A stretch of 64,000 nucleotides of DNA from Candidatus Caenarcanales bacterium (GTDB taxonomy: Bacteria > Cyanobacteriota > Vampirovibrionia > Caenarcaniphilales > Caenarcanaceae): contig JASJDU010000001.1 of assembly GCA_030065015.1 (NCBI GenBank), forward strand, positions 13,814-77,813, in the 5' to 3' direction. Shown here piece by piece: positions 45,138 to 48,100 of this stretch. Made by a program: the position numbers and the translations under genes. The notes beneath the pieces were generated by a model. The model had not been told where the DNA came from, ran no database searches, and saw only the letters and a list, made by a program, of their open reading frames with translations. Each line of letters begins with the position of its first letter. The first letter of the stretch is position 1.

Positions 45138-48100
45138 TTAATCAATCTTCAAAAAAGCTTCTGAAAGATCTTTGAATGAACAATTTATTCCGCATGTCTT
45201 GGACAATTCATAACCAGCAATCGTTGCTGCTTGATCTCTCCGATCATCTCTAAAGAACTCCAGTGAATCAATCCCATGCAAATCAACTCCCTTCGCTTGT
45301 TCTCTCGTTGCAATCTGCGCGTATCCTCCTGCCACTAAAGCATTTGTTTTGGATAACCCAGCTTGATGAGCCAAATAACCGAAGAGAAAGTTGCCATAAA
45401 CATCATAATCAAACTCTTTTCCATTGAAGGAGTAACTGGAAGGCAATCCTTCATTCCCCGGAACATTAGGAGAAAGAACTTCCTTTAAATCAAAAGCTTT
45501 TTGAGGACTCATCGTCTCATGCAACAAAACCAAACTCTCTTTGCTTGCCGGATGCTCCCTCATAAATTGAGCTTCTGGGCTGGAATTAATCGAATCCAAA
45601 GCCTCAGAAAACCATTCAGTTAAATCATTCGATTTGGGAGCATTAAATATCTTGCTCTTTGAACGAGCAGTATCAGGAATCTTTATTGGAGGAAGAACCC
45701 CTGTTGCCTCCATTGTTTTTAACCAAACGGGTCTTTGTCCTTTTGTGTAAGCGTCAATTTGCAATAATTCTGCAACCGTATATGCTTGCATTCCAAAGCT
45801 TCCAGAAAATCCAAGAGCGGCCCCTGACAACCCACCAACAACAACTCCGGCACCAGTCCCACTTGACGCCCCTCCAATCACACCGGAAACCAGACCAGCG
45901 GATGTCACTCCAAGATCAGCCATTCCGGATTTCAAAGCAGCGCCAACGACTCCTCTTGTTGAATCAGATTGATTGAAGAAGGAATTGGTTAATGAAGATT
46001 GAGCAACCTTTAAACCAGGCACCGCCAACCAAAAAAGCGGGTTCCTCTTACTCCTCGCCAACGCATACTCACCCGCCAATAAATACTGCAAATTCTTCTT
46101 GTCATTCTGTAAATCTTTCAACGTGAATAATCCTCCCTTCCCTCTCTCTATTAAAAGCTCAAATTCCTTCATCGGCGTCAGAAACTTCTCCCTTATTATC
46201 CCATCACTCAGTTCCTGACTTCCTAATTGCTGCTGATTATATATCAAGTTTCCCTTCTCTCTTCTTCTTGCCTCTGAAATTACCTCCTTCTGCCTATCTA
46301 TCTGTCTAATTGCAAACTCTCTCAGCGTTAAATTAATACCTCTATCATTCCTCGTTATCTCCATCAATTCATTAAGCGTTTGATCCATTGAACTTAAAAT
46401 CGATATCCTTTCCGCTTGATGAATCTCTCCTTTTAGCGTCGTAAATTCAAACGCTTGTTTTTGCAGCTCTTTTAGTTCTGTATCATAATCCGCATTGTGC
46501 ACCAAAATATTCTCTGCGAAGTAATTGTGATTATCCTTTACCGAAAAGTTATAAACTCTAAATTCTCCTAATTCTTCTTCTTTTTCAATTAATTGAATTT
46601 CTTTCTCTTCAAAAGTTTGAAATGAATCTCCAAGTTGTAAATCTTCTGCTTTTATCCAACTGTTTTTGTTTGTTACCCAATAAGGATGATCGGGGGTAAC
46701 TTTGATTATTGTTTGGTCTGAAAAGGAAAGTTTGAGTAGTTTATTTGCTTTTCGGACATAAGTCTTTTCGATTGGTTTTTTTAGGGGGTTTCCTTCTTTT
46801 CCGGGGACTTTGATTAAGGTTCCTTTGGGGAAACAGGTATAAGCGAAGGGTTTATTTAGATCTACGAATAAGACTTCTTTTCCAACGGAAATTACGGATG
46901 CAATATAATTCCCCTCTTGAAAGCTACTAGTTCCGTTTATTCCTAGAAGATTTCCTCTTAAGCTCCAAACATTATGTTTGCTTGTCCCTTGGGTTGTTGA
47001 ATGATTCAGCCCGAAGGTTCCGATTCCCGAATATCCGGTGAAAATTCCTTGTGCTGTGTTTTGCTTGTTTAAACTTCCTCCCAAAATCCAGTTCTTGTAT
47101 CCGCTTCCCAGGTATGAAGCATTTCCGATTCCTCCGAATACGGATAAATCATTTTTAAAAACTGAGAATCCGATTGTTTTAGTTAACGGATTGAAATTAA
47201 ATCCAACTCCCTCTAAATTTCTGGAAAAGTTACTTTCTTTTATTGGATTTATTTTTCGATTATTGATTTCGATTCCTTCAAAATCGGGTTGATTTAGTTT
47301 TTTTCCATTCCAATTGATTTCTTTGGCATTTATTTTCGTTGAAAGATATTTATTTCCTTTTATTTTTTCTTTATTAAAAGAGGCATTTAAATTAATTCCT
47401 CCTTGAATAATATCCAGGTTAATTCCGCTACTTAAAAAATCAAAGTTTGATTGAAAGGGGGCGAATTCTCCGGAAAGAAACAATTTGGGAGTTTCGAAGT
47501 TGATTTTATCTTTTGCATTTAGATTGCTCGCCTTTATATTAAGTTGCTCTTTCGCATTTAGATTTATTTCCTTTGCGAGAAGGTTGCTTGGAATTAAATT
47601 ACTTTCTTTTCCACTTCCTTCGAAAAGACTGAGATTGATTCCGGTGTTTGTTCCTCCGGAATATCCAAAATTGAGGCTAAGTCCGTCTGTATAAAAATGG
47701 TTTTGGAAAATTCCGGGATTTATATTTATTTTGTTTGCAGAAAGGTTAATTTGATTATTTGCCAATAAATTGGAGCCTTGAATATTTAGTTGTTCGGCAT
47801 TTAGGGTTAAATTATTTCTTGCGGATAGATTACTGCTTTTTTGGGTGGTTATTGAATATTTTGTATCTTGGAAATCCAGGCTTCCCAATAAAGGTTTTGA
47901 AAAATTAAAACCGAAGGATGAATTCTCATTGAACGATTGAAAGACTCCATCTTTTATTTCTATCTTGGGGGAGTTTAGAAAAATATCATTTGCCAAAATA
48001 TCGGTTGCTTTTATTTTGATTATTCCATTGCTGTTAATAATCACATCTCCGTACTTCGATTCGATTCTTGGAATTTGGACGATTTGTTCTTTTTGTTTAT

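Follow-up and report, generated by a model that had tools for sequence, protein, structure and literature searches.

What lies behind the Hint domain of a filamentous hemagglutinin-like protein in a Caenarcanales bacterium, and by what route might it enter another cell? The gene in question is on the reverse strand of contig JASJDU010000001.1, within a stretch of 64,000 nucleotides (the window, whose positions we use throughout) from a metagenome-assembled genome (MAG) of the Melainabacteria, class Vampirovibriophyceae. An initial annotation had described the tail of this protein as an unrecognized domain, possibly a novel toxin directed at membranes. We find that the tail ends in a known toxin domain, Ntox44, and that this domain is preceded by a previously undescribed module with a glycine zipper. 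We regard it as somewhat probable that the whole tail is a three-part delivery-plus-toxin cassette of a TpsA-type polymorphic toxin, in which the zipper module carries an RNase across the target membrane.

A known toxin domain behind an undescribed module

The relevant features are listed below. Residue numbers follow the longest open reading frame (ORF), 45138..50363 (-), of 1741 codons; NCBI and the gene callers start the protein at M7, which gives 1735 aa.

45138..50345 (-): complete gene of the toxin from M7 on; 1735 aa and a stop codon; NCBI MDJ0624796.1, annotated as 'filamentous hemagglutinin N-terminal domain-containing protein'
49524..50219 (-): two-partner secretion (TPS) domain, residues 49-280; Pfam PF05860, E 1.4e-26; TIGR01901, E 5.8e-22
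46494..46835 (-): pretoxin Hint domain, residues 1177-1290; PT-HINT (PF07591), E 3.3e-11; TIGR01443 intein C-terminal region
45954..46493 (-): helical part of the pre-toxin module, residues 1291-1470; long helices predicted by AlphaFold2 (AF2); conserved in P0002, P0003, P0006 and L013 (homologous proteins and loci listed in the next section)
45789..45953 (-): glycine zipper, residues 1471-1525; small-xxx-small pattern and i+4 Gly spacing; hypervariable patch at 45789-45949
45672..45788 (-): helix and linker past the zipper, both conserved, residues 1526-1564 ('AELLQIDAY...IKIP'); homolog conservation and AF2
45141..45671 (-): Ntox44 domain as folded, residues 1565-1741; PF15607, with the Pfam match at 45204-45503
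45276..46607 (-): tract holding every nucleotide difference from a second MAG in a 17.2-kb comparison; apparently a recombined toxin-tail allele
45099..45117 (-): terminator-like hairpin, 21 nt past the toxin stop codon

The TPS, PT-HINT and Ntox44 matches, obtained in scans of Pfam and NCBIfam, all exceed the Pfam cut-offs. The presence of a TPS domain, PT-HINT and a C-terminal toxin supports the earlier suggestion that the segment behind Hint is the payload of a polymorphic toxin, here of the TpsA type. The Hint domain, in which the PT-HINT Pfam match itself spans residues 1195-1290, has C1177 ('CFPKGT'), the TxxH block T1217-PD-H1220 ('TPDH') and the terminal pair H1289-N1290. Because these catalytic residues are conserved, autoproteolysis is predicted at N1290/A1291. 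The residue right after the HN pair is A, T or D in the family; hence cleavage rather than splicing is to be expected.

'VHNA' occupies residues 1288-1291, and the tail past the HN pair is 451 aa long (residues 1291-1741). The tail is therefore real, and the length of about 490 aa (residues 1252-1741) first assigned to it was a miscount; the span 45138-46490 corresponds to residues 1292-1741 and the stop codon. All of the strings by which it had been described can be located: RQIDRQKEVISEARRREKG at 1353-1371, GVIGG...GSFG at 1494-1524, FDYDVYGNFLFGY... at 1651-1671, GYAQIATREQAKG at 1680-1692 and CGINC at 1724-1728.

No toxin family, it had been stated, could be named for any part of the tail. 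Ntox44 (PF15607), with a gathering cut-off of 24, matches it at 38.3 bits (E 1.8e-9) when the whole protein is searched and at 40 bits (E 5.4e-10) with the tail, residues 1621-1720 aligning to model positions 9-101 of 104. The terminal block of about 120 aa, previously taken for an unnamed toxin domain, is thus a member of a family that was defined in 2012 (PMC3482391). Ntox44 was described as all-alpha with the motifs DxK, GNxxxG and DxxxD (Zhang et al. 2012, PMC3482391). The three are present as D1625-L-K1627, G1657-N-FLF-G1662 and D1706-DRR-D1710, and in alignments (A3, A4) that include Rhs-linked Ntox44 toxins their columns show conservation of 90% or more, up to invariance. The AF2 model of residues 1565-1741 is mostly helical, in agreement with the all-alpha description, with a predicted local distance difference test score (pLDDT) of 90.8 and a predicted template modelling score (pTM) of 0.88. 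As folded, the domain has about 177 aa and exceeds the 104-position Pfam model, which covers some 100 residues. Foldseek comparison of this model with PDB structures gave no E-value below 3 (every one was >3), and sequence and profile searches of the domain against PDB gave no significant match.

What might this domain do? A 2026 review (PMC13577199, which cites Wang et al. 2025, Cell Rep 44:116074) reports on TseR, a PAAR-Ntox44 effector from Yersinia pseudotuberculosis: this RNase depends on divalent cations, has a preference for single-stranded RNA and acts against bacteria and HeLa cells alike. By analogy with TseR, the domain described here would also be an RNase, and its invariant acidic residues are compatible with metal-dependent catalysis. 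Outside the published motif set there is also a CxxxC pair, C1724-xxx-C1728 (45180-45194), conserved in most of this Ntox44 clade and in several Rhs-linked members and missing in P0006, P0016 and P0017; it may form a disulfide for an extracellular stage.

The word 'unrecognized' remains apt for residues 1291-1564 and not for the block that follows them. These residues match no Pfam or NCBIfam family at E <=1, Pfam Gly-zipper families included, and sequence and profile searches with the tail and with the module found no PDB match. In the AF2 prediction the module consists of two helices of great length, two that are shorter, a stretch left unmodelled and one more helix; the pLDDT is about 70 at tail residues 23-83. 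Its helical part contains the charged helix (residues 1353-1371) and the conserved motif 'LQYLLAGEYAxxRSxxNPLxW'.

The glycine zipper that had been noticed from the letters is genuine and conserved. Residues 1471-1524 contain 13 overlapping matches to [GAS]xxx[GAS]xxx[GAS]. Gly-Gly spacing has its maximum at i+4, with 58 pairs against 43 +/- 4.6 in shuffled sequences (8 of 5000 shuffles reach 58), a test on eight mutually related family sequences and so indicative only. The stretch is made up of G (26%), S (15%), V (14%) and A (14%); across the family it has 1-3 charged residues per 49-65 and is about 50% hydrophobic, and its Gly columns are kept among homologs of just 25-35% identity. The tandem GxxxG motifs thus lie on one face of a helix, within a hydrophobic stretch of about 55 aa that is largely free of charge and probably a hairpin.

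If our reading is correct, such a cassette might work as follows. Self-cleavage of Hint at N1290/A1291, as its conserved catalytic residues lead one to expect, would free the 451-aa fragment. The module (1291-1564) would then insert in the membrane of the target cell, as we propose by analogy with the zipper of Tde1, and would pass the C-terminal domain across, after which Ntox44 (1565-1741) would degrade RNA. Deeply diverged versions of the zipper would be swapped by recombination, with the helices and the RNase held by purifying selection.

Tde1, a DNase delivered by Agrobacterium's type VI secretion system (T6SS), has an N-terminal GxxxG zipper that is required for membrane permeabilization and for entry of the DNase into prey (PMC10240207). 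In both proteins tandem GxxxG motifs stand directly N-terminal to an enzymatic nuclease toxin domain. The two differ in delivery (T6SS and an adaptor for Tde1, TpsA and Hint here) and in enzyme (an Ntox15 DNase against Ntox44), and the zipper discussed here is longer, about 55 aa, and set between conserved helices. The likeness comes without demonstrated sequence homology.

Occurrence and strain variation

How widespread is the module? An exhaustive phmmer search with the 450-aa tail against 1.84 billion (1.84e9) representative proteins returned 11 hits, one of them the query protein itself. Only P0002, P0003, P0006 and the fragment P0007 among these hits cover the helical-zipper part. A word-indexed homolog search gave 0 hits with the 450-aa tail and, with the module alignment, only P0006, because Gly-rich words saturate the candidate list. 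There was no tblastn match among plasmids; genome-contig scans at first gave none, and later ones added only L012 (identical to L006) and L013. The phmmer hits, contig look-ups and two collection scans together yield seven distinct loci.

Window, with a second allele in L011: Caenarcanales MAGs; full gene
L005 (P0002): JGI metagenome; gene only, starting within Hint
L006, the same as L012 (P0003): Synechococcales cyanobacterium MAG; partial Hint, module, Ntox44
L007 (P0004 and P0007): ENA metagenome; low-coverage frameshifted contig with Hint end, module, Ntox44
L008 (P0005): JGI and NCBI metagenome; zipper in an upstream ORF, then Ntox44
L004 (P0006): Flavobacterium MAG; orphan cassette beginning in the helical region
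L013: JGI metagenome; filament end, Hint, module, Ntox44

The zipper stands directly upstream of this Ntox44 clade at 7/7 loci. The helical part is present wherever the contig extends that far (all except L008), and Hint precedes the module in all five loci that have upstream sequence. The Rhs-linked Ntox44 toxins that we recovered (P0010, P0012, P0013 and P0016) lack the module. No standalone copy of it appeared in the phmmer search, the module homolog search or the window scan. Short orphan copies of the C-terminal domain had been proposed as something to look for; within the window there is no stray copy of the Hint, helical, zipper or Ntox44 parts.

Two of the loci have a repetitive organization. 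In L013 (2668-2893) the sequence 'MQLYVSSNLNA.NINLN...GTNINGNAINP.EQRIENTTSF' recurs about 70 nt past the toxin stop, as at the opening of the upstream cassette; here cassettes (filament end, Hint, tail) follow one another in tandem, and no gene separates them. The array at 135-3205 of L004, from the Flavobacterium sp. MAG, strings together an unrelated toxin tail, an ORF of 81 aa, P0006 (the orphan cassette of helices, zipper and Ntox44) and the start of the next cassette, and it looks like a typical orphan-toxin island.

Closely related strains offer a different kind of evidence. The second MAG, GCA_029976255.1 (L011), has the same locus, 99.8-99.9% identical over 17.2 kb. All differences are confined to 45276-46607 (residues 1253-1696); there is no difference in the remaining 15.9 kb or so, to which toxin codons 7-1252 and every neighbouring gene belong. 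Within this tract, a 161-nt patch in the zipper (45789-45949) shows about 45% nucleotide divergence with indels, its Gly positions being kept, and contributes 32/35 amino-acid differences of the whole protein. Nei-Gojobori estimates of synonymous (dS) and nonsynonymous (dN) divergence between the window and L011 are:

Residues 7-1252 (1246 codons): dS 0, dN 0
Residues 1253-1471 (Hint end and helices): dS 0.056, dN 0.002
Residues 1472-1525 (zipper): dS 1.1, dN 0.55
Residues 1526-1741 (linker and Ntox44): dS 0.092, dN 0.004

The helices and Ntox44 are under strong purifying selection. The zipper values indicate a much older allele introduced by recombination, since a more than 10-fold excess of dS cannot arise from relaxed constraint on a shared genealogy. 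Both zipper alleles are in frame and seamlessly flanked.

A third assembly, L001, has the zipper allele of the window but the L011 variant at five sites (45641-45702). This further mosaic could be an assembly chimera of co-existing alleles. L002 and L014 match the window without a single difference (100% identity), over 10.3 kb and 21.3 kb respectively. Across the five independent assemblies (window, L011, L001, L002 and L014), the 3' end of the toxin gene is the sole polymorphic stretch in about 41 kb compared. Since the contigs L001 and L002 both stop within the toxin gene, we suspect that co-existing alleles broke the assembly graph there.

Because the zipper is the allele-specific part and its flanks are conserved, we suggest that it contacts a co-evolving partner, for example a membrane receptor or an immunity factor. 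One can speculate further. The module might be a new, self-contained membrane-entry module whose zipper is a swappable specificity cassette, with ancient alleles under balancing selection, that decides which cells the RNase enters. We hold this extension to be rather unlikely. If true, it could explain the lack of a recognizable linked immunity gene at loci with downstream sequence: kin would be spared by a mismatch of zipper and receptor, or the targets would be other organisms, possibly eukaryotes.

Proposed translocation and its alternatives

Several points weigh against translocation of an RNase by the zipper module. We infer membrane insertion from the analogy with Tde1, which is likened to the module by motif layout and not by alignment; nor was any sequence relationship of the zipper to a Pfam glycine-zipper family found at E <=1. 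Its top 19-residue Kyte-Doolittle mean is 1.44, under the usual transmembrane threshold of 1.6, and the AF2 pLDDT is below 50 at tail residues 131-267, zipper included. All of the sequences are metagenome assemblies. Among ORFs of 430 aa or longer, the 64 kb contain no TpsB (POTRA/ShlB); a gene for this transporter may lie in another part of the genome. Lastly, no immunity gene is found downstream. The toxin gene is followed by the hairpin and then by rpe, the next gene, which is convergent (44300-44977, +), and the 160 nt ahead of rpe leave no room for an ORF on the toxin strand; hence there is no conventional immunity gene, an absence that is atypical for an antibacterial toxin acting in the cytoplasm.

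The other loci are similar in this regard. L011 likewise has a terminator-like hairpin and then convergent rpe, the downstream neighbour in L006 is a convergent NmrA gene, and in L004 and L013 the next toxin cassette begins 30-70 nt downstream (30 nt and about 70 nt, respectively). The 128-aa ORF that follows P0006 in L004 looks like the beginning of a further toxin cassette rather than like an immunity protein. The ORFs downstream in L004, L007 and L008 have no tblastn counterpart in the window or in loci L001-L008, and those in L008, L009 and L010 have no Pfam family at E <=0.1. We therefore rejected the idea of an immunity gene shared across loci.

The main rival to translocation, in our estimate an unlikely one, is that the protein is a dual toxin. 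Here the helical-zipper module would itself be pore-forming or depolarizing, as in EsxX, Tse5 and CdzC/D, Ntox44 would be a second, independent payload, and the zipper would be hypervariable as a means of evading an immunity protein that binds to it. Tse5 and CdzC/D are further examples of glycine-zipper membrane toxins. Depolarizing toxins of this kind do exist, and the immunity protein of EsxX from S. aureus, ExiB, recognizes the glycine zipper, binds it and sequesters it (PMC12744356). Like them, the protein discussed here is a secreted polymorphic toxin, of a type regarded as antibacterial, with a long Gly-x-x-x-Gly array. It would also suit a dual toxin that strains differ strongly in the zipper alone and agree fully in the first 1246 codons and in every neighbouring gene. 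However, the co-varying or linked immunity gene that it predicts is not seen in 17.2 kb, where all differences lie within the toxin gene. In EsxX-type toxins the zipper domain is the terminal toxic moiety, whereas the present zipper lies inside the tail, ahead of a conserved enzymatic domain. At every locus it is coupled to an intact Ntox44 under purifying selection, which fits an accessory role better than an independent toxin, and the searches described above found no standalone copies of the module. A membrane-targeting toxin, as first proposed, is possible for the zipper; translocation is the more economical role because the zipper directly precedes an intact enzymatic toxin domain.

A quite improbable alternative places the function of the module in the producer. 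It could be an element for secretion arrest, for membrane anchoring (the toxin being held until contact with a target) or for oligomerization, rather than for entry into the target. TpsA/CdiA-type proteins do bear delivery-control regions between filament and toxin, and the module occupies this position; the missing linked immunity gene would be more tolerable if the toxin were sequestered. Yet the module is located downstream of the Hint cleavage site, so that it would depart with the toxin and not stay with the filament, and such a role gives no obvious reason for ancient diverged zipper alleles.

Could the zipper simply be a flexible low-complexity linker, variable because of relaxed constraint or replication slippage? 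Its composition, the indels between alleles and the very low AF2 confidence would agree with this. A dS of 1.1 in the patch, more than ten times that of its flanks (0.06-0.09), needs a different and older genealogy, however, and distant homologs retain the Gly positions and the i+4 periodicity in a sequence in which about half of the residues are hydrophobic and charges are nearly lacking. We consider a linker very improbable. Least credible of all is the variable region of a diversity-generating retroelement, which the extreme and sharply localized divergence (about 160 nt) in a clonal background might bring to mind: within the 64 kb it was rejected, since its substitutions are of every type, occur at each codon position and come together with indels, no template-repeat-like copy exists in the window or L011, and no reverse transcriptase is among the ORFs scanned in the window.

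Genomic surroundings and significance

The toxin gene stands alone among housekeeping genes. Upstream of it are mnmE, a ComEA-like gene, an S-layer homology (SLH)-OprB porin gene and the gene for EF-G. A foreign origin was considered from the GC content at third codon positions; the shift is merely mild (0.32 before Hint against 0.37 after) and we do not rely on it.

Several other parts of the window deserve a brief mention. At 39996-42135 (+) there is a pair of paralogous hypothetical proteins (230 and 231 aa, 43% identity) and, after them, a hypothetical protein of 192 aa; the opposite strand has a 464-aa and a 104-aa helix-turn-helix-like ORF. No Pfam family matches any of these, on either strand, and the second MAG has all of them unchanged. 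A HepT / MNT (nucleotidyltransferase) toxin-antitoxin pair is located at 39050-39660 (-). The SLH-domain and OprB porin at 52675-54594 (+) is of the outer-membrane anchoring type of cyanobacteria-like diderms, which fits Melainabacteria. A 642-aa ORF at 27152-29080 (+) has a weak, sub-threshold LptD_N / LptC-like match; it is not TpsB and may be a divergent lipopolysaccharide-transport protein.

How does the cassette compare with what has been described before? Its likeness to other Ntox44 toxins, such as TseR and Rhs-Ntox44, consists in the match to the family hidden Markov model, the motifs, the helical fold and the C-terminal position in a polymorphic toxin. The difference is the helical and zipper module of about 270 aa that precedes the domain here and that Rhs-linked members lack. 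In the 2012 table, Ntox44 is associated with the type II, type VI and type VII secretion systems, with RHS/ALF repeats and with a papain-like protease, and no immunity family is given (PMC3482391). The same table does not place it with the type V secretion system, filamentous-hemagglutinin repeats or Hint, nor in the cyanobacteria/melainabacteria group (PMC3482391).

With CdiA-CT systems the present toxin shares a TpsA-type filament with an N-terminal TPS domain, a bipartite tail (a delivery part and a C-terminal nuclease) and strain polymorphism. In those systems the tail is demarcated by VENN, here by the Hint autoprotease; neither an adjacent cdiB/tpsB nor a cdiI-like immunity gene is found here; and only the zipper, not a whole toxin/immunity pair, is strongly divergent between alleles.

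Genuinely new are the rare pre-toxin module of helices and glycine zipper, with its hypervariable zipper and no recognizable linked immunity gene, and the TpsA-Hint-Ntox44 architecture in Melainabacteria and cyanobacteria. The analysis also flags a toxin clade for which a linked immunity gene cannot be recognized. Beyond a few CdiA and colicin cases, it is poorly understood how nuclease toxins released from the cell surface cross the inner membrane of their targets. A compact, conserved module here occupies the position expected of an entry domain and is coupled to a toxin family with reported activity, and the two zipper alleles in an otherwise identical protein constitute a natural allelic series. 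Whatever the zipper contacts, TpsA-Hint polymorphic toxins and Ntox44 are hereby extended to Melainabacteria and cyanobacteria.

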